From Psammoneis japonica (lineage: Eukaryota): a stretch of DNA of 64,000 bases. Positions within the stretch are counted from its first letter, which is position 1, and every line of letters begins with the position of its first letter. Positions 22,713-64,000 of the stretch are shown one piece after another. The stretch covers positions 87,939 to 151,938 of the forward strand of contig QPGO01000038.1 in assembly GCA_008632985.1 (NCBI GenBank). Direction: 5' to 3'. The notes below the pieces were generated by a model. It had not been told where the DNA came from. It was given only the letters and a program-made list of their open reading frames with translations, and ran no database searches. A program made the position numbers and the translations under genes.

Positions 22713-22740
22713 TTCCAGCGCCACCCACAGTGCCATGCAC

Positions 22741-23982: not shown

Positions 23983-26050
23983 TTGAAATGGGTCAAAAAT
24001 TGTTTGTCAGTGAGAGACTGGAGGCGGGGTGCGTCATCAGCGGCAGAGTTGAGGCATCCGGGCCTGCAATCATGGAGTCCAAGGCAGCGGTGACAGCTTT
24101 GATGGAAGGCTTGGTGCCGGAGAAGCTTGGAGGCGGGTTTGATCGTTGTGGCCGATCCTTTGCGTTGCCAATGCATTGTGCCGGAATTGTCGGTGCGGGA
24201 CAGGACAGTGCGCTCGCGCATGTCGAAACACTCGGCGGCGGCATGGGATTGCATGATGCTGCCTGCGAGTTCGAGGTCGGTGTCAGTGATGGGACCTCCA
24301 GGGTTGGCGCACGTGGCTGGGCGGGATGAGACGCACTTTGGAAAGGGAAGTCGCCACACCACGGGGCCTGCATCACGTTGAGTGCAGTGGCGGCCGTTGC
24401 TGAAGCGGAGGGTGGCGGCGCGCAGGACAGCAGTGTCGGTGGGCAGGAGCATGCCGCCGGCACCGTGGCCGGCTGCATCATGGCAGCCTGCAAGAGTTGG
24501 TTGTGATGGAACCAGTTCATGAATGTGAACGGGTCGCGAGTCGAGGGTGGCTTCAAGCTCGCGAAAATCGTCCAGTGCTGAATGGGCATTTTGAGCAAGG
24601 CAGACTCGGGAGTCTGGAGCAGTGTGTTGGAGGTTCTCCTGAAGTTCTGAGTGCAAACTGCGCAAGCCTGGGATGGCAATGCCAAGGGAGCGCAGTTTGC
24701 CTAGAAGCTTCTGGTGTTCGGCAGTGGTGGCATGCTTTCTGGTGCGAGGAAAATCCTTGTAAAGCGTGTTGTGAAGTCGTGCACGCCTGCGTGGCGTGAG
24801 ACGGATGGTCATTGATTGTGTGTCAATTAGCCACCCTGGCACTTCTTTCTGTGTGGACCAGGTGGCGTCACCCTTGCGGAGCTTCTTGACAGAGGCTGGC
24901 TCCTTGCTGGTGGCTGGATCCTGGGAATCAAGGGGACAGAAGATGTCGTCTAAAGCACACAGAGAATGACTCGATGTGCATTTCGGCGGGACCGTCGCGA
25001 GCCTTGCGAGGCTCCAATGAAGTCGTCCACATAGATTTCGACGCATTGCAGACGACGACGGCAGTGTCGCCTGAGATGTGGGTCGTGCGCCTGTGGCACT
25101 GGCACAGTTTGCGTGGTGCCATCGTCTGGTGGTGGTTGGTGTGGCGGCAGCCTGCTGTTGAGCAATCATTCCAACGGGTGTGCTGGAGCTTTTACGTTGC
25201 GCATGAGGTCCAGGTTGGCCATGTCCGCCACAGTTTTGGCAGCAGTGCAAAACACAGGTGGCGAGTTGGCCCATCCCACAGGCAGACGTGTGGGGAAGGC
25301 AACAAGTGGTGGTTCGCCTGGCAAGCTTGGGAAAACCACTCCCAAGGTGGGTGCTTGGTCCGGGGCAAGTTGCATGCGACAGCAGCCATCTGCAAGATTG
25401 ATCTTCATGAGGTGGACCTTGCCTTTTTGCGGGTTGGCCAACAGGATGCGACGCAACAATCTGTCCAGGGCTCGACCAAATTGCATGGCTTCCACTGCGG
25501 CGTTCGGTTGTGTCAAAGGGTTGACGCCATAGAATGTGCAGTCTGCGATGGGGCGTGGGTGCCTGCCACATTGTGGCACCACACCAATGGGGCCAAGTCG
25601 AAGCCCCAGCGCATTGCGGACTTTGTGGTGCGGAACCACAGTCCAAAAACCTTTTTCCACCACATCGGCCACATCTTCGCGCAAGAACTTGATGTGTTCG
25701 TGTGCGGACTTGTGTGGTCCTCTTTCAACACTGGTGTCTAGCTCAGCGTGCGTCCAGGGTGCGTCGGTGACGGTGATCAGTGCTCCATGGTGCTTGCACT
25801 GTTTCAGCAGTCGATGTGCTGGATGTCGTTGGCTTCTGGCCAGGGGGCCCCAATCGCCTCTGCCGCTGCGGCGACACAACAGGTGGCTGAGTCCTTTGCG
25901 ACGCAACAAACCAGTGTCATTTGAAATGTGCTCACCCAATTTGTCATTGTAAATGGCAGCAGCCACATCCTGTCCACGTGCAGTGGGGCGGGTGTGCTGC
26001 CGCTTCAAACTCTCCACAGTCGGGGGTTGTGGATGCGCTGGCCGCTTGGC
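23900..26050 (-). pseudogene. Reverse transcriptase / RNase H of the DIRS-order element, frameshifted
   Basis: GVVPQCGRHPRPIADCTF, KINLADGCCR, RLPVGWANSPPVFC and EIYVDDFIG (~25020-25040). RNase H motifs HDAAGHGAGG, DLELAG, TDNS and NSAADDAPRL. Confidence 0.88.
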
Positions 26051-26107
26051 CGACGTGAGAATGGGCTCTTGGCACCAAGTCCCCGAACTTGGGCCATTGC
26101 CGAAGAC

Positions 26108-28363
26108 CCATTTGGTCTTCCAATGTTCCTCGCCCCAAGCGAGGAAGCGCTGCTGCTCATCCTCTGTGTGGTCATTGCGATGGTCGTAGCTTGAGCCGCA
26201 GTTGGAGTTGCACTGTCCCTTGATGTGGTGGGGGTTGCAACGGACGCACCCTTGATCGTCCTTTGGGAGCTCGACATTGTCTTGGGCGCATCGGTTTTTG
26301 ACGTCCCGTGACCGCACGTTGGGACAATCACGCAACCTCGCGAAGCGCGAGTCGCAGGCGGGGTTGCAAACGATGCTGTTGGTGCCCACTCTCACATCGT
26401 CGCCCGACCCTGTAACAGGAGCAGGGGGTGCTCCGGACCCAGTGGCAGGCGTGACAGAGCCCGTGGCCTGCATCAAAGGTGGGAGGCTGAGACGCCAAAA
26501 CATGGTGCCCTTTGCCGCTTCATGCACAACATTGTGTGCCGTGAAGGGCACTTCCTGGTGCGTGGTGGCTTGAGACAGGAACCAATGGCACACTTCCACC
26601 TGGGCATGGCATTGTAGATCCACGGGGAGCGTCGGGTGCAAGGTGTGCTGGTGCATGAGCTTGTTGGCACACCGATCCATGTTGGTGCACTGAAGGGTGA
26701 GCCACTGCACGACGGGGTGCTGATCTCCGAGGGTGGCCGAGAGGATGAGACGGCAACCGTCGTGGGATTGCTGTGCTGCTTGCACAGTGGTCGCGACGAG
26801 TGCCTTGTCGGGCGCTTCCAGGAGCTGTGTGTCTTGGAGGGACGGAACACCGGCACCTCCGTGCATCTGTGCATACATTGCATTGTGACACACGATCTGT
26901 TCGGCTGCTTGTGGAGCAGTGAGCCTGAACAAAAATGGGTTGATGCCTTGTGTCGGCTCCTCCTGATCATGGCCGGCGAAATCGAGTTGCACCAACTTTG
27001 CAACAAGGCTGACAGTCACTGGGAGGTCGAAATGCACTTGCAAGGCTTGACACTGCTCCTCAATGGAATTTTGAACGACAGCGAGGCGTCCCGTCTTTGG
27101 TGCTGTGGCAAGTGCTTGCCAGAAAGGTGGGAGTGCAGCCTCGTTGTAGACCTGGCACCAGTGCAACAACTTGGTGACGCCAAATGCGCCCCAAAACTCC
27201 ATGGGCGTCTTCCCCCGGCTAGCAGCATTGTGCCTTGCCTCTTCGTCCAACCGCTGTTGCCGCTGCTTGGTGGTGAGACCTTCAACGGCGGCAACAACGG
27301 GTTGAAAGTGCTGCGCCGGCACTTGAGTGCCGGCGTTGCGACCCAGCAGGTCTCGCTCAACCTTGTGGTCAAAAAAGTGCATCAAAGCATCATTGGGCGG
27401 CCGTGTCATGGTGGGCCAAGGCTGAGCCACAGCGGGTTGGAGCTGTGCATTTGCTGTGGCACAGCATGCGACTCTTAGAAAGTCCAGAAGCGGTGCCAAG
27501 GCCATGACTTTGTTTGCTGCTGTGGCTGCCCCGTGGAGCCTCGTGCAAGCGGCTTTTGGGCCAAGCGGTGTGGGCAAGAACAGGCGGACGAACTCGAAGG
27601 GGACGCACATGGCATTGCACGTCCTCACTTCTTCGGTGTCTTGTGCACTGGCTTGCACATGAGGATGCAAACCATTCGGAGCAGCCGTGATGTGCGCGCG
27701 CAAGGCGTCATGCATGGGCACCCACGTGCCTTGGTTGGCTAAAGCAAACGCGTTGTCTGCAAACTCGACGAGGGTGAACTGTCCACGTGTCAAGTCGCCA
27801 GTGACAACGAAGGTGGCATTGTCCCAAGGCTGCGCGGGACCCACCACAGCAGTGGGGCACGTAGAGACGCAGTGCAAAAGCTGCACTTGCCCCTCGTCCA
27901 CCATGCCTTGTGCCCGACAATGAATGACAATTGCCATTGGAAGGTCGTGGCTTGAAGCGGCTGCCACTCTGTCGCGCAATGCCCCGGGATTGCATCGTGA
28001 GGCACCCTGAACCGGCGCCACAAAGTCCAACACAGCTTCGGTGTGCTCCCCATGATGCAGATCCTTGGAATCCATCGCGCGGCAATCTTGGCAAGTGCAA
28101 AGCACGGGTGGAGCCGGAGGCATGACAGGTGCTCCGGCTGGTTGCGGCGGCTGTGGTTGACCCCCTCCGGCAAAATGAACACCTGGTCCGGCTGGTGGCA
28201 CCGGCACTTGCGGCGGCGCTGGTGCTTGAATTGGTTGCTGAGCTGCTGCGTTCGCTGCCGCCCCATTCTGAACTCCTTGCGCCATGGCTGCTCCTTGTGC
28301 TGCTGCAGCTCCTTGCGCCACCATGGCTCCTTGCACCGCTGCGGCTCCTGGTGGTTGATTCAT
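26108..28363 (-). pseudogene. gag-like ORF1 of the DIRS-order element
   Basis: Starts MNQPPG (ATG at 28363), with an A/Q/P-rich N-terminus and a C-terminal Zn-finger-like CNPHHIKGQCNSNCGSSYDH. The 3' end is inferred. Confidence 0.75.
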
Positions 28364-28440
28364 GACACATGAGAGGGGAGGCTCTTCCTGCGAACGATGA
28401 AAACAACAAATGGCGGATGGTGTCCTGCGCCAAATCGATG

Positions 28441-28657
28441 GCATTAAGAAAACCATCTTATGGCTGTTGCTCTTGGTTGCTCTTCGGAAGAATGAGAGGA
28501 GCGAGTGGAAGAGCAAATGGCCGTTGCTCTGGTCTTGCGAAAGCGCGTTCAAATTGTTGAACGGCTGAAAAAAAAAAACGACCCAACGGTCAAAAACGGG
28601 CCACAACGGCCAGGCGTGGGTCATTTCGCTTCGTATCGTCGAACGTCGCGAGGTTGG
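28441..28657 (-). repeat. 5' split repeat A1
   Basis: Near-identical to 22377-22563 apart from indels and TA/CG-site substitutions. Confidence 0.9.
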
Positions 28658-28932
28658 TCATGAACATATATTTTTTTATTCACATGTAGAATGCCAGCGC
28701 TTTTTGATCTTGCGGCGCGACGGTGATCATCGCAACACGACCGCTCATCAAAAGCATGTGCCGTTGTAGCTCGCAGTGAAGCTTAACTTTGAGAAAACGA
28801 GCCATGTTGAACAAGCGGCATTGTCATTCCATCAACAAGACTAGTGGAGCTATCTTAGCAGACGACTCGTATGCTCATGGGTAAGAGTTACAGTAAGAGT
28901 TAACGTCCATGTACAAGTAGATTCGGAACCAT

Positions 28933-36907: not shown

Positions 36908-37158
36908 TCATCGTGAGACCCCACAAATACGGAGGGACCCTCCTGTAGAGCTCTACGCGAATTTTTGTATGTGGTACTGAAACATGTAGCCTACATACGC
37001 AAAACTGGTACAGTTTCTACGACAAAAATCCGAAAAAACGCCTAGTTCGCGAGATAGCTCTGGTACAAAACCTACGTGAACAGTCCCCATACATTCACGT
37101 AGAACTCTACACATTTCCGGGTTGCGGGTCCCTCCGTATTTGTGGGGTCCCACGATGA
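36908..37158. mobile_element. MITE with 33-bp TIRs and a 4-bp ATGT target-site duplication
   Basis: TCATCGTGAGACCCCACAAATACGGAGGGACCC (36908-36940) matches the reverse complement ending at 37158 with one mismatch. ATGT lies at 36904-36907 and 37159-37162. Confidence 0.8.
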
Positions 37159-37219
37159 ATGTGGACGCCATTTTGCCATTTTGCTTTGCTAGTAGGTGCG
37201 ATGATTGCTATCTTTTGTG

Positions 37220-40200
37220 GCTTGGCGTGCTTTTCGTCTGCTTGTCGCTCGATCGATCCAATCGAGCTTCCTCCCTGTGCCCTGTTGTTTTGTGTGCTGA
37301 CAGACACACAACTGCAAATCAATTCAGTTCCACTGCAGAGCCTCTGTCATGGTGGAGGTGCTCTTCCTCCATGCAATGCCTGCAATTGTCCTCATTGTGG
37401 GTGATGCCAAGAGCAACAACTCTGGCTTTGTTCTTTTGTGCATGTGGCCACACCTGGCTGGTGGATTTTCAAAAAACGTCAGCACCAGAGCCTGAGCAAG
37501 GGCGAGTGTCGATGCTGGACAGAGAGCTGCACTGGGAGGCACTGCATGAAGCAGCTCACAAAACTGTGTCAGAAGCTGGCTCCACAGACTGATGATTTTG
37601 TGGGCAACCATTTGTTCTCTGTCATCACCTTGGGGCGCCACTTCAAGTTGTGCACGACATGATGTTTGGTTGACTTGGAGCCCCAAAGAGAGAGAGAGAG
37701 AGCTTGTTGGTGAGTGAGACATGACCACAAAGCCATGGCTGAGAGCAAAGTTGCAGAACAAGGTTGTGGAAAGAGCACTCACAAGCAAGGGTCAACATGC
37801 AAAAAACTGAAGCTTCTTTTCCTGCTCACCACTTCTTGCCCAACCTTTTTGTGGCTCCCATTGCTTGGCACAGGCCTGTTGTCAGCACTCCATTTGGTGC
37901 TTCTGGTGTGACCAAGATGCAGAAGAGCCCCCAGCATCTGACAGCACAGATGTCTGCTCTTTGGCAATTTCAGCAAAACCACAGATGTGCTCTTGGAAAA
38001 GCAAGTGGCTGGGGAAAGTCATCCAATGGAAAACTGTCAAGTCAAAGGAAGAACCTTCTTTGCTCTTGCTTGCAGCAGTGCTCAGTCAACAAAGCAGCAA
38101 TGTGTGTTGAGGGTGCTGCATGGTGCACATTGCACAAAGAGGCTGTGCTGTTTGCTGGCCAAAGTTGTTTTAAAAGCATCAGCTTTGATGTCGCCAGAGA
38201 AACACTGCGCCAGTTTGTGAAGAGCAGCCAATCATTGTGGAGTCACAGAACAGAGCTCCACATTTTTGGGTGGCTCAAGATCAAAGACAGCAAAGGTTGG
38301 TCAAAGCCACCCCACAACAGCTCTGAACAAGGGCCACTCAAAACAAAACATGATCCCCAGCTGTGTCAACCCCCGCCCCTGTGGCACAGAGGAAACGCCC
38401 CACCAGATCACCATGATTTGCACATCATTTAATGCCAACCTGTGATGTGTCAATGTTGTTCCAACATTGAGCACTTTTGCCATGCATTTTGTTTGTCTGC
38501 CACATTTTTCAGGGGCAAAGCAACATGTGGCAGAAGCACTGGTTTGTCTGGCAGGCTGCTGTTGCTTTGTTTTTTTTGCCACATCACTTGCCATGATGGA
38601 TTTCCATTTTTTGGCCCCATCTCTCCTCACCATGTGGTCGATTGTTTGTGGATTGATGAGGTTTTTCTTTGTTTCCTTTGGCAATGTGCTTTTTGCAGAG
38701 CAGCACACAAGTGATGAGAAATGGCCAAATTGCACAGAATGTGTGTGTGTGACTCTGTCAAAAATCTCAGAGAAATGGAATGTGAATGACAAAACAAGAT
38801 GGAAAATGAGCTCATGTTCCATCATCACATGCCAACACATGAACCCATGTTGTGTCCAAATTGCCTTTTTTTTCACATTCCATTGCCTCGTTCCAAGAGC
38901 CAAGAAAAGAGGCCGTGCTTGTTTCATTTTCTTTCTTTTGCTTTTGTCACATTCTGTTTGCACAATGTTGTGCACTCCATGCCTCCAAAAGAGAAATGGA
39001 GTGCAAATGTTTTTAATTCCATGGCATTGCAGTGGGAATGTGGCATGCTGTCTGCTGTCTTCCAGAGCAATGGAAATGGAGCACAGAGTGGAGTGCGCAA
39101 AAGTCTAAAATGGGATTGTCGCCACTCAGCCAAGTTTCAAAGGCTTTTCGTGGATCTTGGGAGTGCACCTGCCAGCAGGAGCTGAGGGGCATTTCAACTC
39201 TGTTCTCTTCTTGCAAAAACCTGCAGCACTCAGCTTGTGCTCCAGAATGACAAAATTTGGCATCATGCTGAAAAAACTCTCATCTCAAATGATGCAAAGA
39301 AACCAACTTTGTGGCAAGTTTCACACAAAGGGTCAGTGCATGATGGTGTGCAAGTTCAACAATGACAAACCATGAGGAGGCTCTGCCATGCAAGACATGA
39401 CATGAAGTGGGCGGCCATGTGGTGTGCAGCACTGCAAACAAGAAGAATGACAAACACCACAATGGGGTGCATGATTGTTGCTTGGTGGCAGCAGCCCAAC
39501 TTCCACCAGCAGATGACCATGCCCACCTCCCAAGCCTGCCCATTTTGTTCCAACCTCAAAAGATGCCTGCATGAAAGCAAGACTCTCATCCCATTGCAAC
39601 CAAAAAGAGAGCTGAAGAGACAAGGGAGTCAAGCCAAACTGCTCCGTCAGTGCATCAACAATGCATGCAGAATCCATCAAAAAAGCCCAAATGTCTCCAT
39701 CCTGCTTGTCAGAAATCATCCAGACAGCAACATTTCAAGAGAGTTTGGGAAGTGCAGAGCCTTGGCAAGTGTTCCTCCCCAGTTGAGCCCCTTGACCAGA
39801 GTGCATGCAACAAGATTCTTGTGAGCCATTTGTGCTCCAAGACTGCAGTGCACCAACAGCCACCAATGCTGCAGCTCCCCAAGACAACCCAACACTCTCT
39901 CCCACATGAGAGCACCCTGACTGCCTCTGAACACCAGCTGCATTTGCTGGATGACCCAGCAGACACCACTGCTCAGCCTCCCTGCATGAGTGGCACAGCA
40001 CAGTCAAAAGCTTAAAAAAAACACCAAACCCAATTTTAAGTGCCACCAAACCTTTGCCCAGCAGCTGGAACAACAGGTGCCGCTGAAGGGCAAAGCCCTG
40101 CTGGAACAGTCAAAATGGAGGAGGAAAAAAATGGATTTTGCTGGGGTCTTTTGGGGATCTTTGTTTCAGTCATGCACACATTGGGCACACTGCAAACCAC

Positions 40201-42010
40201 AACAGCATTGCACACCCACTGTCATTGACAGCTGCTCTCCAAGAAGTCATTCATTCCGTTGATTCATGACATTGTGTCACAACCAACTCAGCTGCTGAGC
40301 AAACCTCTTTTTGGCTTTGATGAACCAATGGCTCTGAAGCAGCAGAGACAAACTGGCAAATCTGCAAACAGCATTTCAACCTTGACCTTGAAGCAGCCAT
40401 CTGAGCTCAAAAGATGTCAGCACTGGAAAGTGGCTCCAAGTTTTGACTGGTGGATCAAGTCACCCCCTTTTTCAGCATCATCCTCTGTGGAACAATGCAT
40501 CCAGTGCCCTGTCCACAGGTGCACAAAATGTCTGCTGCTGCAGCCTGTTGACTGAGAGGCATGGCTGCAAGACATCCAAGATGCTCTGCAAAGAGGAGCT
40601 CACAATTTGGCAGTGAGAAACTCTTCAGCTCCACTGCAGAAACTGCACATCAAAGTGCAAAATGGCTGGGAATTCCCACTGCAAATGTGGATGAGATCCA
40701 TCTGTCATGGAAGGCTCTCATTTTTTTCTCATTCATCCCTCTCAAGTTTTGAAAGAAACCATGTCCGTGGAAGTGGGTGTCCTGACAGAATTGTCTTGAG
40801 TCAATCTTGGTGAGCTCATGCTCGCACCACCCACCATGATGTTTTGCATCTCACCCTGGTTCTGGGGCACAGGAGGAGGTCTTTGGAATGAAAGCAAAGC
40901 AGTTGCAGGAACATGAAATTTTTGTGGACCAATTGTTCTCTGACATGTCATGGCTGGATTGGTGTGCTTGCTTGTCTCACAAAGCATTTTCTCAGCTCTT
41001 CTCTGACCCCCTTTTCATCAAACACACAGATGTGGATGATTCTGTGTTTGAGCCCTTGTTCAAACCTGGCAGTGTTTTGTGAGTGCAGCGCCAGTCCATG
41101 CCAGTGGCTGACTGCATCAATTGAAACACAGCATCAACAGGAGAAGTCTTGGTTGATGAGCAAGACAATCATGGAGATCACCTTGAAGCAGATCATCTGT
41201 GTTGGTGCTCTCAGAAGGTCGCTGCATTGTGTCACACAAGGTTTTTCTGTCAAATCCATTGACGATCCCAGAGCTGTCAGCTTCAATTGAGACACGCAGC
41301 TTTTGCAGCACAATCTCAACCAAAAGAGCTAAAAAGAACAAAGGCGCAAAAGCAAAATTGGTGTTGTCGTGCATGACCTCGAAGATCAAGATTGTTGTCC
41401 CGCGGAAACCACAAACCACAGCCACTGGAGAAAGAGGTGCAACATTTGTGAGGCTGGAGACAGTGCCACTCTCTTTGAGTCAATGGATGATGATGAACAT
41501 CTGGCTGCACCCATTTGAACATTGGGCAAATTGTTGGTGTGCAGACAAGAACAAGAAGGTGCAGCAACAGAGACAAAAACAGCTGCGGAGATGGCACATG
41601 GGGCACCTCACACAGCAACAGATCACTGGCAGAATGAAGCCTCTTGACAACACACTGGGGCATCAAGCCTCAACATTGAACAAGCAGCACAACCTGAGAC
41701 CCAATGCTTTTGCATTTGCCAAGTTTTTCTCAAGAACAAACACAACGCAGCAAAAGGAAACTGGGGGAATGTGGGGGCTTTTGCACTGGACGAGCACCGC
41801 GCTTGTTGGTGATTGTTTTTTCTTGTTTGCCAATGATTGCTCCAAATGCCAGTCGCATGCACACCCTCTAAAGTGGCTTAAGGAGATCACATGTGCAGTG
41901 ACCAATGACACTGCCTGCACAGCACAGATGACCCCACATGAACGGAACTGTAAAGCAGGTCCGCTGCTTGCCGGTGGACAAGCAGCGCATCATGCGCGTG
42001 CGCTTGCGTG
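37220..42010. mobile_element. Heavily decayed repeat block (TpA- and CpG-depleted), including a possible DIRS-type gag Zn-finger remnant
   Basis: No credible intact gene. QLCGKFHTKGQCMMVCKF at ~39300-39360 resembles the gag finger of the element at 26 kb. Confidence 0.5.
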
Positions 42011-43429: not shown

Positions 43430-46400
43430 CACGTAGAATTCCACGCATCATTCTGGTGCGAACAGGTGCACAGCATGAGACGACGATGGCGATGACTGCA
43501 GGATGCAGGGCAAGGCAGGTCACGGTGAGGAGCGTTGCTGCTCAATGCGGAGCAGTGTCTGCTTAAGAAAAGGAGGCTGACCAGTTGTTTGGCAGAGATG
43601 CCCAGACTTTCAATTGCAACGCGCGCTGGCTTTTGGGGGACAAGATGGTGTGGCAGAGCTTTTCCTTGGACCCTGTCCAAACACTGTCATGCGTGTGATC
43701 ATGCCTGACATCACAGGGCCTAAAATGAGCCTCTTCAAAAGAAGCCAAACCACCAGCAGGCATTCGTCATCAGCGACGACAATGACACAGCAAACGAACA
43801 ACCCCTTCAACATCATGAGCGGCAGCCACAAGTGCTCCTGTGGAGGGGGCTCTCGCAAGCATGTGTGTGATCAACAAGCAGGCATCAAAGCAAACAACGT
43901 GGCAAGTTTGCTTGCTTCAAGATTTCTGCCATTTTGGAGGTGAGCTGTGGAAGCTGCAATGTGCGACGTGCAACTTGCACCTCAAGGGAGGGATGCGTCT
44001 CCCGCCAGGCCCAGTTCATGACAGGTGAAATCATGTCAGCACAATGCATTGAATCTTTTCTTGATGTGAGCAAACTGGCAGAAAAGGAAAGGGTTTGCCA
44101 TCCAGCCAATGCTGGCTGCGAAACTGTGCACCTCAACAGAGGAGAGATGGGGAACCGGTCACACTCAATTTCATGTGCAGATCGCCCGATCAACACCCTG
44201 ACCACCTGCATGATGCTCTCCATGAAACGTCAGCCACAACATGGACTCAAGAATGACTGGAGAACATGTCTTCAACAAATCAAGAGTGGGGATGTTGCAA
44301 TCTCTTCTTTCCAGCACATGCTGAGAAGAGCCGACATGTTGCGGGCATTGACTGTGTGACAGAAAGAGCAACTTGGCCGCACAAATGTCAGCAACTGCTC
44401 TGATTCTCCAAGAAGCCAATCTTGACATCTGTCTTCTTCATGAAGTGCAGTTTGAGACTTTGTCAGAGGCATGAAGTCTCCTCTCCTGTCAATGACTGTG
44501 CTGTCATCCTTTTCTCACGTGGGGACAACATTCAGTTGCAACGTGTCCGTGTTCTACTTTTTTTTTGAGACTCCCACGCAAGTTCTAATTTTTCCATTTC
44601 TGGGGGAGAAAAGAATGCTCTCCTCCTGCAGCACCTCAGCCATGTTCTTGGCAGTGACAAAAGAAGTGACTTCAATTTGGCTGGTGTGAGACTGTCACAA
44701 CCTTCTCTGTGACTGGATTGAGTTGAGCAATTTTCTTAAAAGGGGGTTCAGAGGGAAGAAACATGAAGACCCATTCTGCCATTTCACCGTTGATGATGCA
44801 CCTCTCTGAAATTGGAGTGGTTTGTTGCAGCTCCAACCAGCCCACCACGTGCATCTTTGACCCTGTTCGGGTCATTGGTGGGCTCTGTGTGCAACAGGTT
44901 TTTGAAAAGACCTCAGCACAAATTTGGAGTCAATGCAAATGTTGCCAAGAGCAGGGATGTTTGGGATTGCATCTGGCCTTGTTCTGTTGGAAAGTCTGGG
45001 TTACAAAGTGCACGAATGAGACCCAACATTTGACTCTTTCAAAACACCCTCCAGCTCAATCTCTCCACCAGCCTTGTTGGGACAAAAGGAACTTTCTTGA
45101 TTTTTCTGATTGCTTGCTGCTGCTTTGGGGGAGATGCCAGCCAGTGCCATCTTCTGCGAAGTTGTCTCTAAGCTCTCTTTCTGCACCAAAGATTTGAACA
45201 TTGTTTTGTGTTTTGCAATTGAAAAACTGACGCAGGCACAACCCATGTCTGTGCCCACAATCTTTTGCCAGCAAGTGCAGTGCCTCGTCAAGTCATGTCA
45301 GCCAGCAACACGCTTTCATTGAAATTGTGAGTGGGCAGAAAAGTGAGGGTGAAAAGCCATTTAACTCTCTCTTCTCTTTGTGGACCTGCTTTCACGTGTT
45401 TTGACAAACACTGTTCAAAATGGCACTTGCAAATTGAACAAGATTTGAACAATCCCCCACAGTTTGCCAAGCTCTGTGATGCAGCCATGCAAACAGCCAA
45501 TTTGGTTCCTCTTGTTTGATTTTGGAACTCCAACTCTGGACTCATGTTCTGTCATGCAGCATGAAGCTGCTGCAGCAGGGGGGTTTTTGTGCATGGAAGC
45601 ACCACACAATGGAACAATTCTTGGAGCAAGCCTTTTGACACCATGTGATTCTGGCATGCTTTCAAGGCACATGGCAGAAACTGGTGCTGCAGCTGAAAAA
45701 ACACAGAAAGACAGAAATGTTTGTCAGTGCCTTGAACCCCAACATGCTCAACTCACTGCACTGACCTTCTGCAAGAGAGCATCAGTGCACATGCCATTTT
45801 GATTTGGTGCTCTTGAACTTCAAAGTGCCGCCAGCTTTGTTGAGCACTTGCTGTGCTGAACAAAACAATGTTGTCTTTGCCAGCACACTTGTTGATGAGG
45901 ACCCACAAAGAGGCAGGAGAGGTTCTCAGCAATTGTGGAGATCTCTGAGCTGGAGACCAAGAGTCAGTTGGGCCCCTGAGTTTCATACAAACCTGCTTTT
46001 GACAAAGCTGGCACATTTCTTCTGGAGGCAAGCAAAGCAAATGCTCATGTGCAAGAGAAAGTTGGGGTTTTCAGAGCATTGTTTGCACAAACAAAGGTTG
46101 CTCAAGTTGTGGCAATGACACCAGAGAGCTGCCCTGTTGCAGGCAGAGATGTTTTGCAGCTCACAGCAGCAGGGCTTTCAAGGGTGGCAGCTGCCTGCTG
46201 TGAGGTGGCTGCTCTGATGAAAGCACTGGGGTTTGCTCCCAAGCACACCATGTCAACTCCTTGACAGATGTTTGTGGTTGAAAAAAATGAAAAAAAATGA
46301 TGCTCGCGGATTCTTGTGTTGTTTGCAATGCTTTGGGCCTGGGTGCCCAATCCAAACATTGGCCAAATCAGTCTGTGCACCAACCCCATGCAGGTCTGTG

Positions 46401-47340
46401 CTGGGCTGCAAGCACACAAGCCAAACTTGTGCTGTCTGGAGCTTTCCTGTTCAAAAATCTGCACCAACACCTGGGCGGAGCCCCATGAGAAAGTTTGCAC
46501 CCAGTTTCCAAGAAAGCAGACGGCAACAAGAAGTGCATGGAATGACAGCAGGGGGCAAAATTTGGCAAGCACAAGAAGTTTTGTGGAGCTTCAGAACCCC
46601 CATGATTTTTTGTCTCGTCCAAAAATGCAAATTAAAAAAGTTTTTGCCAGCAGAGTGTCAGGTTTGACCCAGCCATGCTGGACACATGGCACTTGCAACA
46701 CCAAATCTGTCAAACCCCACGTGTGGACTCCAGCACCCAGAAACACTGTTTGGCGCACACTCCAGTTGGGAGACTCTTCTGCTTTCTTTAGTGGCATGCA
46801 GGATTTTGTGCTCTAACCTCACACTTGTGCAAAAAATGACACAGGAGCAGATGAAAAATGCACAGCCAAGGTCACACAGGAGCACCCAGCAGCTGTGCAG
46901 TGTCTGACAAGGATGAGGCAGTCATGCTCATGTTGACCACATCAACTCTGTCAGCTGCATTTTTGCATTGTGTGTTGTTGACAGTGCTGATGAGCATGCA
47001 GAGTGCTGCTGGCTGCTCAGCATTTGTTTGCAAAATTGCACTGCTCACAAGTGATCTTCTTTGTTCAACTGCACAAGCTTTTGCATTGTTTTTGGCACAC
47101 ATGCGTTTTGGTTGGAGATTTAAAAACTGGCATTTGACTTGACCGGAGTCATGCATCATGCATCATCTTGGCTCAAGAGATTGCAGATGTTGTGTCTTTT
47201 TGTCTTTGCTCTGGTGTTAATTTGTTTTTTTTTTCTGCAGCAAATGCATCAGTGGCTGCAGCAAGGTCAGATTGAATTGCTTTTTCATTGTACGGAAGAG
47301 TGTCAAAATGTTGGTTGCATCGAATCCAGAGGTCAACGGT
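43430..47340. mobile_element. Heavily decayed repeat block (TpA- and CpG-depleted), family not identified
   Basis: Abrupt compositional shift on both sides; only fragmentary Tyr-poor ORFs. Confidence 0.45.
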
Positions 47341-51185: not shown

Positions 51186-53064
<1,879 letters not shown>

Positions 53065-54895: not shown

Positions 54896-56488
54896 TTTGT
54901 ATGAGTGGATCTTCCTCAATCTAGAGAAACGCTCTCTTGCTTCCTCGCGTTCAAAAGCGTTCCGAGCAAGAGCGATGATTCTGCCATGGTGCGGAGACGA
55001 TAAGCAGAACGAACAACTTCTTCAACTTCAACTTTCCCGCCAGTTTCCCGCGCATTTTTGTCTGTTTGGGGGGCGTCTTTGGAAGTGAGATCGTCGAAGG
55101 CGGTCTGATCGCCAGTGCGTTTGGGGTTTTTTCCAGTACAATTTGTACGCACAAGAAAACACGTAGGATCTGTCCAGAGGTCCCAAATACCCAATCGCAC
55201 TGATTGACAGACTGTTTTAGTACAAATTCTACGTAACTTTCTTCGACAGTCTCACTTCCGAAGACGTAGCCCATGTTGATCTCTGCGCCAATCTGGGATT
55301 GGAAACTGACCCGGGAATGGCGACTGACTCGTGACTCGAAGTTTGTGAGATCATGGTGGTCTCTACCATCGCATCAGCGAGTGGCTAGAGAGTGGTTGAC
55401 GACAGCTTTTTGTCCACCTTTTATCACGACAAGGCAACACCAAAGCTTGCATTGTAACGACGTTTGTGGGAGCAGTGAATTGAAGCCAGTTGCAAGTCAG
55501 AAGAATTGTGGCACAAGCACGATGAACAAAGATCGGCTCAACAGCGAATGCTCTCCTCTCCCTCAACCATTGTGAACACTTGGACAACATCTTCTGTCAC
55601 CATGATTGTTGCCACCCATGACCTGTAAGAAAATGGGAGTGCATTTCCAGGCGAACCAAGACAATCTGGAGTCTGTTGCTTGTGTGGCATCATCAGAGAA
55701 CCTGACAGGATTTGAACAGGATTTGGGTGCACGCGAAATGTCGCGCGCTGTTTAGTTTGCCGCGCACAGTTTTGTGTGCTTTAGTTCCGCGCGTTCGCGC
55801 GCGAAGCAGTTTGCTTTCGAGCCACAAGGCTCACAAGAACAATGACAGTGGCCCGATTGTGCCGACTTGCACGTCTTTCGGCTCCTGTGACGGTCTCTGA
55901 GCGGAGACTCATCTGCCATTTAGACAGCAGCAAGGAGTTGTTGTTTGAATTCTTGCCATTTGCCTTCAATTTCTGTCAGATTGACAGTCTTGCTCATTGT
56001 CAACCCATTGAGCAACCGCCATCGTCGTCGTTGATTTGCCGACGACGCCACTTCAATTCTGCGTGGACCTCCGCATGCACTCTACATGCGTCGGCAAGTC
56101 TGCGCGTGTTCAACACCAGGCATCGGCAGGAATTTAACGTCGCCGTCAAGTCTCCTTGCCGCTGGACATCTGGATTGATTGTGCTGCCTTTCAGTGCTGA
56201 AGACATGCATTCAACGGTCACATCCAAGTCCACCCTTGATCCTCATCCCTTGATGTGCCCATTCATCAGTTGACGGTCAAGAACCCCACATGTTCAAGGA
56301 TCTTTGTCGCTGAAGACATGTGTGCACACATGTCTTCACGAAAAGGAGAGGATTTCCCAGCTGGAAGTTGCTGCTGGCTGCAAAGCTGTGTGCCCTGACA
56401 GAGATGTGAAACCAGCCACACTCGTTTTTGTTTGCAGATCACCCAGACAACACCCGACCACCTGTGCAATGCTGTGTGCAATGCTCTC

Positions 56489-57104
56489 TGTCAGGATTTG
56501 AGCAGGATGTTTAGTTCACTGCGCACAGTTTTGTGTGCTCTTCAGTTCTGCGCATGTGCACGCAACGCAGTTTGCTTTCGAGCCACAAGGCTCACAAGAA
56601 CAACAACAACAGCAGCCAGATTGCACCGACTTGCATGTCTTTTGGCTCCTGCAACGGTCTCTGAGCAGAGACTCATCTGCCATTTAGACAGCAGCAAGGA
56701 GTCATTGTTTGAATTCTTGCCATTTGCCTTCAATTTCTGTCAGATTGACAGTCTTGCTCATTGTCAACCCATTGAGCAACCGCCATCGTCATCGTTGATT
56801 TACCGACGACGCTGCTTCAATTCTGCGTGGGCCTCTGCACATGTTCTACACACATCGGCAAGTCTGCGCACGTTCAATGCCAGGCATCAGCAGGAATTTA
56901 ACGTCACCGTCAAGTCTCCTTGCCGCTGGATGTCTGGATTGATCATTCCACCTTTGATCGCTGAAGACACACATTCAACGGTCACATCCAAGTCTGTCCT
57001 TGATCCTCATCCCTTGATGTGCCCATTCATCGGTCAATGGTCAAGAACCCTGCATGTTCAAGGATCTTCGTCGCTGAAGACACACACATGTGCATGTCTT
57101 CACG
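56489..57104 (+). repeat. Second copy of LTR + 5' leader (duplicate of 55703-56340)
   Basis: Offset 764 bp, with a ~22-bp deletion near the LTR start. Confidence 0.9.
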
Positions 57105-57695
57105 GCTGAGAACTTGTGCCCACTCTTCGGACTGCGGTTTTGCTGCCACTCTGCAAGCACACCGAGTCCATTGCACCTGATCTACCCCGGACTGCTGGTG
57201 CTCCACAGTTCCACCAGGTCCACGAGGACAACTGTGAGAGCAAGTGGCCATGATTGCAGCCTGCGTTGGGGCGAGGGTGTTTTCCCGCGTTTGTTTGTTC
57301 GTCCACAGTGCCTGACGCCTGCGTCAACTGGCCAGCCTGATCGGGAAATCCAACCGACATAAAACAAGAACGGTTCGGGGGTCTTGTCCACCTCTGGTCA
57401 GCTCACCTGCAGGGGTTTACAACCCGCTGCTCCGCTTGCAAGCAACCCAAAGCGCCGCCAGCTGCGGGTTCGGACGTGCCGGCACAACTCTACGGACCGG
57501 ACAGGAAGTTTGGCACTTGACAACGAACGGGATGGCACAACCCGGCGACTTCTGATTTTAAGATAGTCCAAGATTTCAAGTCAAGTCCAGCTCAAGTCAA
57601 GTCTTTTTCAAGCCAACTTCCAAGTCAAAACTCTGAGTCAAGATCGCGCTCTAGATTGGATCCTGTCTTTTGTTTCTACTGCACCGTCCTCCGTC

Positions 57696-59450
57696 ATGGT
57701 TCTCACGCGACAGCAACAAACCAAAAGCTTCAAATACATTCTAGGCACTGTGCTCAATCAAGACGATGACAGCCCTCTTCGTTCTGCCCTGTCCATCAAC
57801 GGGATTGAATCGTGCGAGGAATTGTTCACGTTCTCACCCACCCAAATTGACGCCCTCACTTGCAGAGACGGCGCCAATGTAGTGCCTTTGCCACGGACCC
57901 ACAGAAACCTCCTAGCAGCTTTGATCAGCTTCTGCTTTCTCAAAGTTTGCAACGGTGATGATGTGACCAATGAACCCCAGTTGCTCACACCCGAGGAATT
58001 TCGCAACTGCCGCCTTGGTCCAGACTGCTTGACCTCTCTAGCCACTGGCGCAGCACCCTCCGCACCTGTGCCGAGTCCCTTGCCATCCAAACCAGGTGAA
58101 CCCAGTGCCATTTTGACACCAGCCTTGCACTGTGCCACCACTCAGGTGTCCCCCAGAAGTGGTGTCAGTCGCGCCCCGCATGTCTTGACCAACCCGCCTG
58201 CAAGCAACCACGGCCCAGTGCAGGATTGCAGCCCTTGCACAGGCCCGCACTTCGAGACCAGTTGGGACACTCCACCCATGGCTTCCAAAGCTGCAGTCTT
58301 TGCACCCCGCAAACCACGTGCTGCCAACCTTCACGTGTCGACCACTGTCACCCTTCACAGTCTTCGTTTGGGAAGTGATGGAGATGACAACTTGCTTCTG
58401 ACATCTCCTGATGGGGAGCCTCCTTTTCCCATCATTGAATCTGTTCACAACAGTTCAACCGGTTCATCAGATGGGGAGTTCAGGACATCCAAGCAGCTTC
58501 GTTGTCTTTGGATGCCTCAAGTCTCGTGCCTCGAGACTGGGCCTCCTGATTGGATGCCTCAAGTCTCGTACCTCGAGACCAGGCCTCCTGATTGGATGCC
58601 TCAAGTCTCACACCTCGAGACTGGGCCTCCTGATTGGATGCCCCAAGTCTCGTACCTCGAGACCAGGTCTCCTGATTGGATTTCCCAAGTCTCGCACCTC
58701 AAGACCAGGCCTCCTGATTGGATGCCTCAAGTCTCGTGCCTCGAGACTGGGCCTCCTGATTGGATGCCCCAAGTGTCGCACATCAAGACTGGGCCTCCTG
58801 ATCGGATGCCACAAGTCTCATGCCTTGAGACCAGGCCTCCCAAATGGACTCTCCACGTCTCGTGCCTCAAGACCGGGCCTCTGGATTGGATCCCCCAAGT
58901 CTCGCACCTCAAGACTTGGCCTCCTGATTGGATCCCCGAAGACTCGTGTCACAAGACTGGCAAGTCCTTTTGGATCCCAGAAGTCTTGCAGCACGGGACT
59001 GGTTGCCCCAATCAGACATCTGCAGCCTTGCACCACAAGATGTCTTGCTCCAACCCGATCCCCGAAGGCTTGCACCTTGAGACTCGTTTCTCCAATTGGA
59101 TCAGTCTCTCAGGAGATGCAGCTGAGCTTGCAATCGGATTGGTGGAACACAAGACCACCGCTTGTGCCTTTGAACTCATGCTTGCTCTGTTCCCCGAGTC
59201 GTGCAAACGCCATGCCGCCTGCAATGTTGCCCCGCCGTTCAACATTGTCAACCAGACCAAGCTTTGCTCCTTCCATTGCAAGTGCGGATGTGGAATCCCA
59301 CAAGATCCCAAGTGTGCCTTGAGCTTTGAAAAGCACAACGGCATCTGCAATTGGGGAGACGCAGCTCATCTCAAGATGACCCACTTGGAGAATGCAACGT
59401 TGCTCTTGGATCTTGATCCTTTCTTGTCTCCTCATGTTTTGGTGCTTTGA
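57696..59450 (+). pseudogene. Copia gag N-terminus fused, via a 14-aa repeat array, to a short pol remnant
   Basis: MVLTRQQQ..FKYILGTVL..DDDSPL..AL...GI resembles a CoDi gag start. C-terminal KCGCGIPQD...HNG..NWGDA..LKM resembles the KYGYEIPRD...NGN.KW.DA..LEM integrase-RT linker. Integrase, RT and RNase H are missing. Confidence 0.75.
58508..58975 (+). repeat. 42-bp tandem array (~11 copies) encoding WMPQVS(Y/C/H)LET(G/R)PPD
   Basis: Unit TTGGATGCCTCAAGTCTCGTACCTCGAGACCAGGCCTCCTGA; exact 42-bp period, no spacers. Confidence 0.95.
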
Positions 59451-59792
59451 CTCCAAAGTTCTTTGGTCAATCCGAAGTCGAATCTGTTTGTGTGACTCCT
59501 CAAGCAAACTGGGGAGTGACAGGATTTGAACAGGATTCAGGTGCGCGCGAAATGTCGCGCGCTGTTTAGTTTGCCGCGCACAGTTTTGTGTGCTTTAGTT
59601 CCGCACGTTCGCACGCGATGTAGTTTGCTTCAGTGCCACAAGGCTCACAAGAATGACAACAGCAGCCCGATTGTACCGACTCACACGTCTTTTGGCTCCT
59701 GGGACGGTCTCTGAGCAGAGACTCATCTGCTGTTTAGACAGCAGCAAGGAGTTGTTGTTTGAATTCTTGCCATTTGCCTTCAATTTCTGTCA

Positions 59793-60420
59793 GAACCAGC
59801 TGGCTGCAGTGATCGAGGCTGCCTTTCTCACAGTGATTTTTCCTCCTTTTGTGGGTAAAAAATCTTTGCTGGAACAGGACATGAGTTGTGTTTGTGGTGA
59901 TGACATGTTGGCTGTCACAGATGAACATTTTCATGCTGTGGGGTCTGACCCCCGCCCCCTCCTGTGTGAGGAAAACATGTTTCATGCTTCGAAACAGCTG
60001 CCAGTTTTCCCCGCGAGAGTTCACACCATCCATCCCCACAAAACTGCAAATTGAAGTCATTTGCATTGTAAAAGTTTTATTTTTTTGTTTGCTGGGGCTT
60101 GCTGGCCTGGCAGAGATGCAAGCTCAGTGGTGGAGATGCTGCTGACAGCACTCAAGTGTCCACACCGGCATTGGGAGTTGAGTGGCATCCCTGCCCTCCC
60201 CTTGCCATCAAAGAGCAACTGGCAAGAAGCTTCTCAACAAGACCCAGGCATCAAACTGTGCATTGATGCATTGAAAGCAGGTGCCACTCTCAACAAGTCG
60301 AAGCTGTTGAGTGCTGAATTCAGCAAAGAATTCCAGCATGGAAGACTCGGGACCAAAGAAGGCATCCTGCGCTGGTGCAAGGGAAGAAGAAAAGCACGTT
60401 GAGACAAATGCAGACAAAAG
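59793..60420 (+). pseudogene. Possible older LTR-retrotransposon pol remnant interrupted by the Copia
   Basis: WQEASQQDPGIKLCIDAL...EGILRW resembles an RNase H-integrase linker. Weak similarity only. Confidence 0.3.
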
Positions 60421-61699
60421 CAGGGCCAAAAAGACATGGGCGAACCATCTTCTCAACCACACATGTCTCGCCTTGTGTGGGACATTCAAGCTGCGAAAAT
60501 GCCTGCTGGAAGATTGCTGCAATCTTCTGGTGGCCAGCAATGGTTTGCCCCACACCTCCCATGCTGTGGAGGGTTCATCAATCACCACTCATGCTGCAGA
60601 GGGTTCATCAATCACCAGTTGTGGCCACATGCTGCATGCTGTTCAAAAACAACATGCACAATCATGCTGCCAGATCTCCTGAACACAAGTCACCAACAGA
60701 GCTTTTTGCAAATGTCCAAGTCAAGCCCCCAAGTTGCATCACCTCCACTCCTTTGCTGGATGCCCTGTGCATGCAACAAAGAACAAGTTGCAGTCAGGCT
60801 CTCATCCTCTAAAGTGGGAAACAAGAGCACACATGGGTGTGTTTGCCTTGGACCTTCACTCAGACACACCAGATCTGGCACTTGTCCTTGACCTCAAAAC
60901 AGAGGGCTTGCTTCTCCACAATGTCATGTCAAAATTGATGACCCATTTGAGGCTGTCAAAGGCTCGTCAATCATTCCTCAGAGTGCCTGGCAAAAAATGG
61001 TGTGTTGCTTCAAGAAAAAAGCATGAGTCAGATTCTCTCCATGAACATTGAGACACAAGGCAACTTCAGCTCCTTCTCAAGATGTGTTGGACTTGCCACC
61101 AACTGATGGCGGGGGCAATGCCAATGATGCAGACTCACCTCTGAGCCACACAGAGTGAACAACAACCTCTGCTTTGCCAAATGAGGGAGGCTTGTAAACA
61201 ACAAGTGCCACTTCTGAAGCTTCTGCAGCTGACTCAGGATCACCAACACCACCAATGGTCACAACACACTCATGCTGCAGATGGTTCATTGATGGTGCAT
61301 TTGCAGCATGGACCAGAAACAGTGGAGAGAAACTCATGCATCCTCCAATGGGTCCCCCCCCACCTCCACTCTCTGCCTCTGCAGTCTTTCTGGATCTAGA
61401 CATGAAAAACTGAGAATTCAAATGTCAACAAACACATCAAAAACCAACAAACCTCTTTTTTTGCACATGCCTTGTCTGAAGAGTGTCATTTGTGGCAACT
61501 TGTGATGACCCCAGATGATGCAAAATTCTGACATGCGTGATTGCACCAGCACTGTGGAAAAGTTTGCAATGTGTCTGTGCACACACAACAACACAACAGC
61601 TCAGCATTCAGGATGGATTTGCAACAGCACACTCGAGACAATGAAACTCAAGATGCGCCCCAATCAAAACCCATCTTGACCAACCAGAAGGACAGCAGG

Positions 61700-62520
61700 T
61701 CTCACCATGCAACGTTTGCAGGGCACACATGTGCACAATGTTTGAAAGATGCACATGAGGTGCGTGTGAGGTGTGCAAGATGTGTGCATGTGGTGAGAAG
61801 CGCGTGTGTGAGGTGTTTGTGAGGTGTTTGCCAGGAGTGTGTAAAATGTGCATCATGTGTTTGCAAGACATGTGTGCAAGCTTTGTGCAAAATGTTTGAC
61901 AGATGGGTGCAAAACATTTGAAATGTTGCATGCAAGAAGCACCACAAATGTGTGTGAGGTGTTTGCAAAATGTGTGTGCAAGGTGATTGCAAGATGTGTG
62001 CAGCGCATGTGTGTGAGGTGATTGTGAGATGTTTGCCAGATGTGCACAAAATGTGTGAGATCTGTTTTTGAGGTGTGCACAAGGTGCGCATGAGATGTGC
62101 TCATGATGTGTGTGAGATGTTTTTGAGATGTGTGTGAAGTGGTGCATGTGAGGGGTTTACAAGATGTGCACAAGATGCACACAAAAAAGTTTGAAAAATG
62201 TGTGCAAGGTGTGCAAGAGGTTTTTGCAAAATGTGCGCAAGGTGTGTGCGTTGGCACTTGTGAGATGTGTGCAATGTGTGTGTGAGGTGTTTGTGAGATG
62301 TTTGTGAGATGACATGTGAAACACTCAAAAGATGTGTGAGATGTGTGCAAGGTGCTTGTGAGACATGTGCAAGGCATTGGCCAGAGGTGTGTGTGCAATG
62401 TTTGAAAGATGTGTGCAGAACATTTGGGAGACATGCGGGAGCTTTCTGCCAGACATGTGCAAAAGTGTTTGTGAGATGTGCATCTGGTGTGCAAGGCACA
62501 TGTGTGAAGTGCTTTTTCAA
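61700..62520. repeat. Degenerate TG/CA-rich low-complexity array (GTGTGCAAGATGTGTG-like units); similar sequence at 63760-64000
   Basis: Imperfect repeats of TGTGTGAGGTG / TGCAAGATGTG / TGCAAAATGTG. Confidence 0.75.
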
Positions 62521-64000
62521 GAGCCCTGTGCAAAAGAGCTGTGACACAAACTCCCGTTGGAGCATTTTGTGGTCACTGTGCTGAGCTTTCATCTGCTTTC
62601 TCATCCAATGCATGCCCAACCACTGATTTGCAGGTGCACTCTCCATTGTAAACTCTGGCACTCATTTCCATCTCAACAACATTTGATGGCATGGCATGTG
62701 TTTTCACAAAATTCTTTTGGCTGTTTTTCATTCTCAGACAACAGCCAAGGACCAAAGAATGCATGTGAAGCTGACAACAACTCCAGCAAGCATGTGGACA
62801 TTGACTGCAAGCAAGGTTTTCTGTGTCTTGCACCCCAGCTTCCTTTGCTCAGTGTCAGAGGTCACTCTGGGACAGGCACAGAGCTGAGATGGAGAGAGAT
62901 GGGTGTTTGACCTCCTCTGTTCTCCAGCTTCAAAAGTGCCCAACTCCCCTGGGAGAGCAGCTTCTCACACAGCAATGGCGCTTGCATGCATCAGCCCTTT
63001 TCTTGGATTTTCTGGCATTCCTTTTGCAGCTGCAAGCATGTGTTGCTTTGACTTCCACTTCTGCCATGCCAGCAAGGGATCGCCCCAAATGTGCTCAATG
63101 CACAAGATTGAGCATGCCTTTCCAAATGCTCTTGTTGCACAACTCGTTCATCAAACAAAAAGTGCGCCACATCACAGGCTTCACACTTGCACACTCCCTG
63201 TGCACCCAAAACAGGATGGGACAATTGTCTGCCAGATCACCTTTGCAGATGAAAATGGCAGGCCCTTTCCATGATCTGACCTTCAAAAAATCAGCAAAGC
63301 CTTTGTTGGGTTGACCCAAGAACTCCTGATGTGCTTGAAACATGCTCTCATCACCGTCAATTTTCTCCAACACAAAAGAAGCTGCCAAGAGCATGGCACA
63401 GCATTTTGTTTGTCTTTCAACACAGGTCCAGCCAAGGAGGGCATGCTGTGTGCCAGCGTGCCATGGTGTGCTGAGCTGGACAAACTGCAGCGCTTCTGGA
63501 GCATGACGGAGGCAGTCTTGGGACCCATGCCAGCAGGGAGTGTGGAGCAATTTTTTGGAATTTTGCACGCAGAAATGTGCGCGCAAAACACACGATGGAT
63601 GACAAAAACAATTGTGTCACAGATCAGCACTGTGAGCTCCCACCTGGGGCTGGAGCGCATCATTTCCACGTGTGATCTTCAAAAAAATTGTTCCAGACTC
63701 ACTGTTTTGCAAAACCCCAGATGTTTTGTTTGCAGCAAAATTGCAAGACCATCAATGCTCCAGGTGTGCAAGATGTGTGCACAAGATGCAAGCAAGATGT
63801 GTGTCAAATGCATGTGAGGTGCTTGGGTGAGATGTGTGCAAAATGTTTGAAAGAAGCGCGTGGGATGTGCGCAAGATGCACACAAACAAAATGTGCATGA
63901 CACACAAGACACACGCAAGGTGTTTGTGAGATGTTTGCAAAACATTTGTGAAGAAGTGTGTGTGAGGTGTTTTGCCAGGTGTGTGCACTGAGCATGTCAA

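Follow-up and report, generated by a model that had tools for sequence, protein, structure and literature searches.

TpA depletion and a three-state TA/TG/CA site in a 42-bp tandem array of a diatom LTR retroelement

Results

A 42-bp tandem array with one site that is TA, TG or CA

Here we describe a 64,000-nucleotide stretch of the genome of the diatom Psammoneis japonica (assembly GCA_008632985.1, contig QPGO01000038.1, positions 87,939 to 151,938 of the forward strand), hereafter the window, whose own numbering is used throughout. A 42-bp tandem array in this window lies inside the gag-like open reading frame (ORF) of a retroelement bounded by long terminal repeats (LTRs); the array, the ORF and the LTR copies are all given on the plus strand. 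The original prediction held that one site in the array units, being TA, TG or CA and never CG, records a mutational process directly, with an ancestral TA hit once on either strand as the most parsimonious explanation.

The array proper consists of eleven units (58508..58969), delimited from a Tandem Repeats Finder (TRF) call together with the unit layout. TRF reports a single array at 58508-58947, with a period of 42, 10.5 copies, 81% matches, no indels and a score of 537, and the unit translates into 14 residues, W-M-P-Q-V-S-[C/Y/H]-L-E-T-[G/R]-P-P-D. Three degenerate, older units follow (units 12-14, 58970..59095), all of which have TG in columns 18-19 and CA in columns 20-21. The three-state site occupies columns 20-21 (58527..58948) in the local context G-YR-C (Y, pyrimidine; R, purine). 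It is TG in five units (58527, 58737, 58821, 58863 and 58947), CA in four (58611, 58695, 58779 and 58905) and TA in two (58569 and 58653, units 2 and 4), all eleven positions reading as predicted, and CG occurs in none of the 14 units (0/11, and 0/3 among the degenerate ones). These columns are codon positions 1-2 of TGC, CAC and TAC in the open frame 57567..59450, which confirms the predicted alternation between Cys, His and Tyr. The absence of CG is, taken alone, weakly significant (Fisher's two-sided test of column 20 against column 21, p=0.061 over 11 units and 0.021 over 14).

A second variable site, columns 31-32 (58538..58959), had been read as ordinary CpG decay. It is TG in five units (one more than first counted), CA in four, CG in one (58874) and TT in one, the last three counts standing as given; CG is kept in part of the units and the rest are mostly TG or CA, as expected of CpG decay. 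Columns 18-19 (CG in nine units, CA in two) and 25-26 (CG in five, CA in five, TG in one) likewise retain CG, and all three look like ordinary CpG-decay sites. Over units 1-10 the 16 YR columns hold 33 of the 46 departures from the consensus and the other 26 columns 13, and the TG/CA steps at columns 2-3 and 11-12 are invariant in 10 of the 11 units.

Three unrelated proteins from other sources (P0008, P0010 and P0016) contain 14-residue repeats that share a P-x-D-W-x-P core with the array unit, a likeness that convergence or chance probably explains, repetition having raised the HMMER scores.

The array lies in a multi-copy, gag-only element

The gag-like ORF runs from ATG to TGA at 57696..59450, within a stop-to-stop frame of 627 codons that begins at 57567. 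Tyr, Cys and His make up 0.5%, 4.4% and 4.3% of its residues, and it matches no Pfam family. The frame 57567..59450 is the only long one through the array; a second frame is open as well, and so is part of the opposite strand, as would be expected of DNA that lacks TAA and TAG. Its N-terminal domain (frame residues 44-180, 57696..58106) is common to many short and gag-like proteins: about 65 of the 130 library matches cover query residues ~44-180 from their own residue 1, at ~24-37% identity, and some of these homologues extend into a gag-like core. The other half or so of the matches are unrelated proline-rich 14-residue repeats. The searched collection contains no close copy of the array protein, since none of the 130 matches of the all-against-library search reaches E<=1e-30; a word-index protein search with residues 20-300, among proteins of near length, gave no match. 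One homologue, P0060, was compared with the Atlas; its nearest clusters there come mostly from diatoms, and the leads to zf-CCHC and gag_pre-integrs clusters are weak (scores of 0.80-0.82). The ORF has probably decayed, as suggested by the replacement of conserved N-terminal-domain residues at many positions.

Three copies of an LTR-like repeat of ~276 bp surround the ORF. After copy A (55703..55978) come 340 bp with homology to the internal region that follows copy B. Copy B (56489..56742), which has an internal deletion near its 5' end, is likely the 5' LTR of the array-bearing unit, and copy C (59517..59792), preceded by the purine run GGGGAG (59511-59516), is likely its 3' LTR; copy C is 91.4% identical to A and 86.6% to B. 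Each of the three copies runs from TGACAG to CTGTCA; the repeats are direct, have TG...CA ends and include a purine tract upstream of the 3' LTR, as in LTR elements; no primer-binding site was identified in the LTR-bounded unit. Because LTR-like copies flank the gag-like ORF, we describe the unit as an LTR-bounded, gag-only element of ~3.3 kb that lacks pol. The array had been assigned to a Copia element, and this label is not established: between the LTRs we found neither a pol region in the order protease, integrase, reverse transcriptase, RNase H nor a Copia-type gag family, and hence no ground for Ty1/Copia membership. The order of parts across 55703-57082 (LTR, 340 bp of internal sequence, LTR, full internal region, LTR) suggests recombination between two element copies or a tandem insertion. 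Just 3' of copy C and outside the unit, 60318-60809 (plus strand) gives a weak Integrase_H2C2 match (E=2.9e-4, below the curated cut-off), which may be a remnant of another retroelement.

The element is multi-copy: over its most repeated segment (57300..57595, plus strand) the summed contig depth is 75,000-171,000, up to ~50 times the ~3,400 of one perfectly matching contig elsewhere, and the copies vary there mainly at YR steps. A metagenome scan with a 17-base unit junction returned 71 loci, each with one match and none element-like; the recurrent ones are ends of bacterial insertion sequences and were rejected as copies of the element.

The open frame and the repeats raise the question of whether the array holds a mutational history at all. 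Its states could come from an error of assembly or sequencing at a modified motif, repeats being hard to assemble, or from selection that favours Tyr/Cys/His variation in a repeat protein with a function, with which 627 open codons would agree. We find this hardly credible: differences of the same types occur in independent read-built contigs, YR-restricted variation extends to the non-coding LTR copies, conserved residues of the N-terminal domain have been replaced, and the further open frames, on the opposite strand too, are what the loss of TAA and TAG would produce.

TpA is depleted outside the gene blocks

Composition was scored in 1-kb windows with the cut-offs of a preprint on Bigelowiella natans, as given in its available text (10.64898/2026.01.13.699255): an observed/expected ratio (O/E) for TpA of <=0.43 and for CpA+TpG of >=1.52. 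TpA O/E is at or below 0.43 in 47 of the 64 windows, 32 of which also reach the CA+TG cut-off, and runs of at least three windows passing both, the signature of a long-term process, include 2-6, 14-21, 25-28, 37-42, 44-47 and 59-64 kb. The stretch is sharply bimodal. The gene blocks (29-37, 42-44 and 48-55 kb) have a TpA O/E of 0.49-0.82, a CA+TG O/E of 1.02-1.34 and a CpG O/E of about 1; the remainder has a TpA O/E of 0.00-0.40 and a CA+TG O/E of 1.28-2.08. The array lies in the depleted block 55001..64000 (TpA O/E 0.00-0.28 and CA+TG O/E 1.36-2.08 per 1-kb window), and composition marks out further such blocks at 1-28000, 37001-42000 and 44001-47000.

Host genes are spared: those for an FMO, an NKAP/S1 protein, a glycosyltransferase and a GPR180-like protein all lie in blocks with a TpA O/E of 0.49-0.82, and each of these four Pfam-matched genes of the window is a single uninterrupted ORF. 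The NKAP/S1 gene (51652-53064, plus strand) encodes an S1 RNA-binding domain joined with an NKAP C-terminal domain, an architecture common to most of the 120 relatives listed, of which those named are all diatoms (Cylindrotheca, Bacillariaceae, Pseudo-nitzschia, Chaetoceros and Cyclotella). A dinoflagellate origin was rejected: the spliced-leader motif has no match at up to 3 mismatches, and its 13-base core has 2 against a chance expectation of 3.7. In the depleted blocks lie the LTR element, arrays and ORFs that lack a family. The Pfam scan covered 136 of their 152 open frames of at least 110 residues, 14 of the other 16 lying at 55.8-62.7 kb, where five of these were scanned separately; 134 of the 136 match no family, and the two matches are an MCM P-loop fragment and the weak integrase zinc domain. 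With only two Pfam matches, further protein-based polarisation of the changes is not feasible.

CpG follows a course of its own. TpA is almost gone yet CpG largely kept at 1-14 kb (CpG O/E 0.59-0.94) and 22-28 kb (0.65-0.85), and CpG is only moderately lowered around the array (0.48-0.89); both dinucleotides are gone at 37-42 kb (CpG O/E 0.07-0.39), 44-47 kb (0.12-0.28) and 60-64 kb (0.13-0.30). Because TpA was lost where CpG was kept, CpG decay is not the source of the TG/CA excess in the CpG-keeping blocks, and since there are two kinds of TpA-depleted block, the losses of TpA and of CpG seem to have been targeted or timed separately.

Mass balance points to the product of the lost TpA. Between 17 kb of gene-like DNA and 43 kb of pooled depleted DNA, TA drops from 42.4 to 4.6 per kb (-37.8) and CG from 55.1 to 35.4 (-19.7), a combined loss of 57.5, and TG+CA rises from 147.8 to 205.8, a gain of 58.0; it counts against this balance that it presumes gene-like starting dinucleotide frequencies in the depleted blocks. 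In the CpG-keeping depleted blocks TAC loses 12.1 per kb and TGC gains 12.2. G+C rises from 0.472 to 0.508 in depleted DNA, and AA and AG are nearly unchanged, which fits TpA, and not A in general, as the target. Error-prone polymerase action at WA motifs (W, A or T) is not supported, AA and AG frequencies being unchanged. The survival of TpA also varies with context. Measured against gene-like DNA, survival is highest for TTAA (0.58) and CTAG (0.32), the remaining TpA being mostly in TTAA, CTAG and CTAA/TTAG, and ATAT, ATAC/GTAT and GTAC are cut to 0-4% (GTAC to 0.04), which hints at a flanking-base preference of the process; the array site, GTAC, is among the most depleted contexts. The gain is symmetric between strands, TG and CA having O/E values of 1.50 and 1.49 in the ORF portion that precedes the array, as is the split of 5 TG to 4 CA at the array site.

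Several other features of the depleted DNA were observed. There are 49 stop-to-stop frames of at least 200 codons window-wide, often overlapping in several frames, for the most part as a by-product of the missing TAA and TAG stops. The TpA-depleted, CpG-rich block at 22000-28700 has a G+C of 0.57-0.59 and a G+C skew of +0.17 to +0.19, and carries minus-strand frames of 1,163 and 754 codons without a Pfam family. The 42-residue MCM P-loop match (17740-18102, minus strand; E=6.6e-6) lies within a TpA-depleted block and could be a fragment of a gene or belong to a mobile or viral element. At 61500-64000 the CA+TG O/E reaches ~2.0-2.1, with TpA at 0.00-0.04 and CpG at 0.13-0.30, and frames rich in His, Thr, Cys and Leu occur on both strands.

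Other copies, protein relatives and LTR pairs bear on the direction of change

Alignment of the units and comparison with other genomic copies had been proposed as a way to establish the ancestral state. Four sequencing runs carry the stretch, all from one sample and none of them RNA among those listed; from run X1, 1,874 contigs were aligned to 57300-59500 with a likeness of at least 80%, and variants were listed from a depth share of at least 5%. Among these copies TA is in the majority at six of the seven sites where it varies with TG or CA (57360, 57396, 57492, 57512, 57735 and 58528), and CG is in the majority at six of the six sites where it does so. At six paired CA/TG sites the surplus lies on the TA-making change at four, is equal at two and lies on the CG-making change at none. 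In the array itself, unit 1 reads TA, not TG, in 52.7% of the summed contig depth (58528 G>A). In the contigs of other copies, none of the changes listed at a 5% share would turn the array site into CG; these contigs derive from a single sample and can miss rare variants. The comparison therefore brought out the TA variant and no listed CG variant, and the array alone cannot fix the ancestor.

Protein relatives add a second view. In an alignment of the N-terminal domain with 60 homologues, position 99 is Tyr in 46 of 60, position 148 is Phe in 41 and Tyr in 14 of 57, and position 154 is Tyr in 25 and Phe in 11 of 56; each of these three conserved aromatic positions is a TGC Cys here. The domain contains six Cys against a mean of 1.12 in the homologues, none of which reaches six, and one Tyr against a mean of 3.59.

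We favour an ancestral TA at columns 20-21, to which we give a probability of roughly 0.58, because TA appears to turn into TG or CA much more rapidly than TG or CA into TA (depleted DNA has 4.6 TA and 205.8 TG+CA per kb), because the other TG/CA steps of the unit are stable, and because of the copy data. A number of observations weigh against it. The units do not count as independent: unit 1 is identical to unit 6, only two columns separate units 2 and 4 (both TA), units 1 and 3 are distinct only at columns 19-21, and units 1-2 and 3-4 resemble a duplicated dimer, so that the states of the array may trace to as few as two events and the TA of units 2 and 4 may be a single lineage. The claim that the array records the mutation directly is for this reason overstated; with duplicated dimers and identical units it does not amount to eleven independent records. 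The three degenerate units all read CA at columns 20-21. Among the copies, 58343 has TA in the minority, and residue 57 of the frame is TAC here and His in 52 of 60 homologues, with TA also in 76% of the local copy depth. All contigs derive from a single sample, which may be that of the assembly itself, and they can lose rare variants; paired changes were counted site by site and may sit in different contigs; and contigs inside the array can be placed in the wrong register. The LTRs speak mostly of CG: of 21 variable YR sites among the three copies, 11 involve CG, 3 involve TA and 7 are TG/CA flips that cannot be polarised. Divergence of the LTR pairs is nearly all YR-step transitions, with 61 transitions and 6 transversions between A and B, comprising 18 flips, 20 CG singles and 2 TA singles, and a single-rate decay model predicts only ~2.5 flips from CG and ~0.1 from TA. 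Such models, with CG alone or TA alone as source, were both rejected, as neither reproduces the flips.

Much of this would also suit a history in which TA was a short-lived intermediate, a CA or TG start passing by C->T or G->A into TA and from there, by a TpA event, into the opposite state, with duplication or gene conversion spreading the states. The route CA->TA->TG (or TG->TA->CA) takes two steps, the same cost as an ancestral TA, which thus loses its claim to being the most parsimonious account. The oldest units are all CA. Unit turnover is evident from the identical units and the dimer, columns 20-21 and columns 31-32 show every one of the four possible TG/CA pairings, which calls for recombination or recurrent mutation, and residue 57 is TAC here but His in the homologues. 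Non-independent units and CA in the oldest ones keep this history alive; we nevertheless think it unlikely, for it needs the slow step from TG or CA into TA, in DNA nearly devoid of TA, in an array whose columns 2-3 and 11-12 stay constant in 10 of 11 units, and against a TA majority at six of seven sites among the other copies.

A CG ancestor (CGC, Arg, in a local CGCG), fully deaminated at methyl-cytosine to TG and CA and with the TA units as double mutants, would accord with the three sites of the unit that show CpG decay (nine, five and one of 11 units still CG), with the share of CG-involving sites in the LTRs and with the loss of most CpG from blocks such as 37-42 and 60-64 kb. It appears distinctly improbable here. 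At least three events would be needed, two at CpG and one slow step into TpA, the most strongly removed dinucleotide, plus the loss of every CG, in a neighbourhood where CpG is only moderately lowered; none of the 14 units is CG, and the copies list TA at 52.7% at unit 1 and no CG-making variant at a 5% share.

Discussion

A process that turns TpA into TpG or CpA, as the original prediction supposed, is strongly indicated in this window by composition, mass balance and the other copies, and it has been shown experimentally in another alga. In the history that we favour for the array, an array-bearing, gag-only, LTR-flanked and multi-copy retroelement of the diatom genome would have come to lie in a compartment where nearly all TpA was turned into TpG or CpA through an A:T->G:C transition at TpA on either DNA strand, with decay of CpG into TpG or CpA running in parallel. 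The ancestral unit would have carried TAC (Tyr) within the palindrome GTAC. After expansion of the array, a top-strand event would have given TGC (Cys) and a bottom-strand event CAC (His), in single units or in small groups of units, and units 2 and 4 would be one lineage that still carries the unmutated state.

The equal gain of TG and CA, the 5:4 split at the array site and the differences between units and between LTR copies argue for changes on both DNA strands after integration and not for editing of a sense RNA. ADAR-type hyperediting changes A to G with a preference for a 5' U/T (quoted in the available text of 10.64898/2026.01.13.699255). This A-to-I editing of repeat-derived double-stranded RNA is an animal system that acts on RNA; a retroelement derived from edited sense RNA gains TG and not CA, whereas here TG equals CA, and here the differences arose between LTR copies and between units of one locus. 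Editing fixed by retrotransposition was accordingly rejected, the TG excess over CA that it predicts being absent (O/E 1.50 against 1.49; 5 TG to 4 CA). As to chemistry, we infer by analogy that DNA adenine deamination may be at work, as proposed for B. natans; a route through thymine modification would leave the same footprint.

Such a process is not unprecedented. In mutation-accumulation lines of B. natans, as reported in the available text of the preprint, two integrated viral regions gained 231 mutations, 230 of them A->G/T->C and the GC-biased ones all at TpA, and an ADAT2-like adenine deaminase acting on DNA was proposed (10.64898/2026.01.13.699255). The two cases agree in that, going by that text, the source dinucleotide is TpA, both products TpG and CpA arise strand-symmetrically and G+C is driven up; that foreign or mobile DNA is affected and ordinary genes keep a normal composition; and that low TpA O/E and high CpA+TpG O/E cluster in 1-kb windows, 32 of the 64 windows here passing the cut-offs set there. 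They differ in several ways: (i), B. natans is a rhizarian chlorarachniophyte, and our host is a diatom, a stramenopile; (ii), the targets described there are single-copy giant-virus and virophage inserts, and here an LTR element, tandem arrays and unrecognisable repeats; (iii), the TpA O/E given for the viral region is 0.45, and here it is 0.0-0.2, near saturation; (iv), mutations were observed in lines there, and here they are deduced from sequence.

Two further systems help to place the process. Methyl-CpG decay also ends in TG or CA on either strand, and it clearly acts at columns 18-19, 25-26 and 31-32 and in several blocks of the window; its source, however, is CG, and it explains neither why TpA has fallen 9-fold nor why CpG-keeping blocks have a TG/CA excess. 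Fungal repeat-induced point mutation (RIP), going by the source as available, changes C to T mainly at CpA, creating TpA and lowering G+C (PMC2621366). It shares with the present case its targeting of repeated or mobile DNA, its restriction to transitions, a dinucleotide specificity, an ability to near saturation and the destruction of reading frames, and it differs in direction: RIP makes TpA and lowers G+C, whereas here TpA is destroyed and G+C goes up, as in a mirror image. RIP itself is ruled out by the 9-fold lower TpA and the higher G+C of the affected blocks.

We therefore regard it as somewhat better than an even chance that diatoms subject their transposon and repeat compartments to a DNA-level, strand-symmetric TpA->TpG/CpA hypermutation that is the process of B. 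natans, running near saturation (~90% of TpA removed over at least 43 kb here) and preferring contexts such as GTAC. The process is already known and has so far been described from B. natans only, so that it would be new for diatoms: the available text of the preprint makes no mention of diatoms (10.64898/2026.01.13.699255), and we found no report in the literature searched of TpA-specific hypermutation or of TpA-depleted transposons in them.

If this holds, TpA-directed hypermutation would be a major shaper of the genomes of diatoms, which are among the most important primary producers, and not an oddity of one chlorarachniophyte; it could then be an old and widespread genome defence of stramenopile-alveolate-rhizarian (SAR) lineages, the mirror image of fungal RIP. 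It would also explain why the repeat compartments of diatoms are full of long spurious open frames, TAA and TAG stops being absent, why Cys, His, Trp and Gln codons abound in them and why diatom transposons evade family searches. TpA O/E plotted against CpA+TpG O/E offers a simple composition test by which silenced or foreign DNA can be mapped in other algae, and tandem arrays and LTR pairs offer clocks with which to date the TpA process; the present array would then be a natural recorder of TpA hypermutation in situ.

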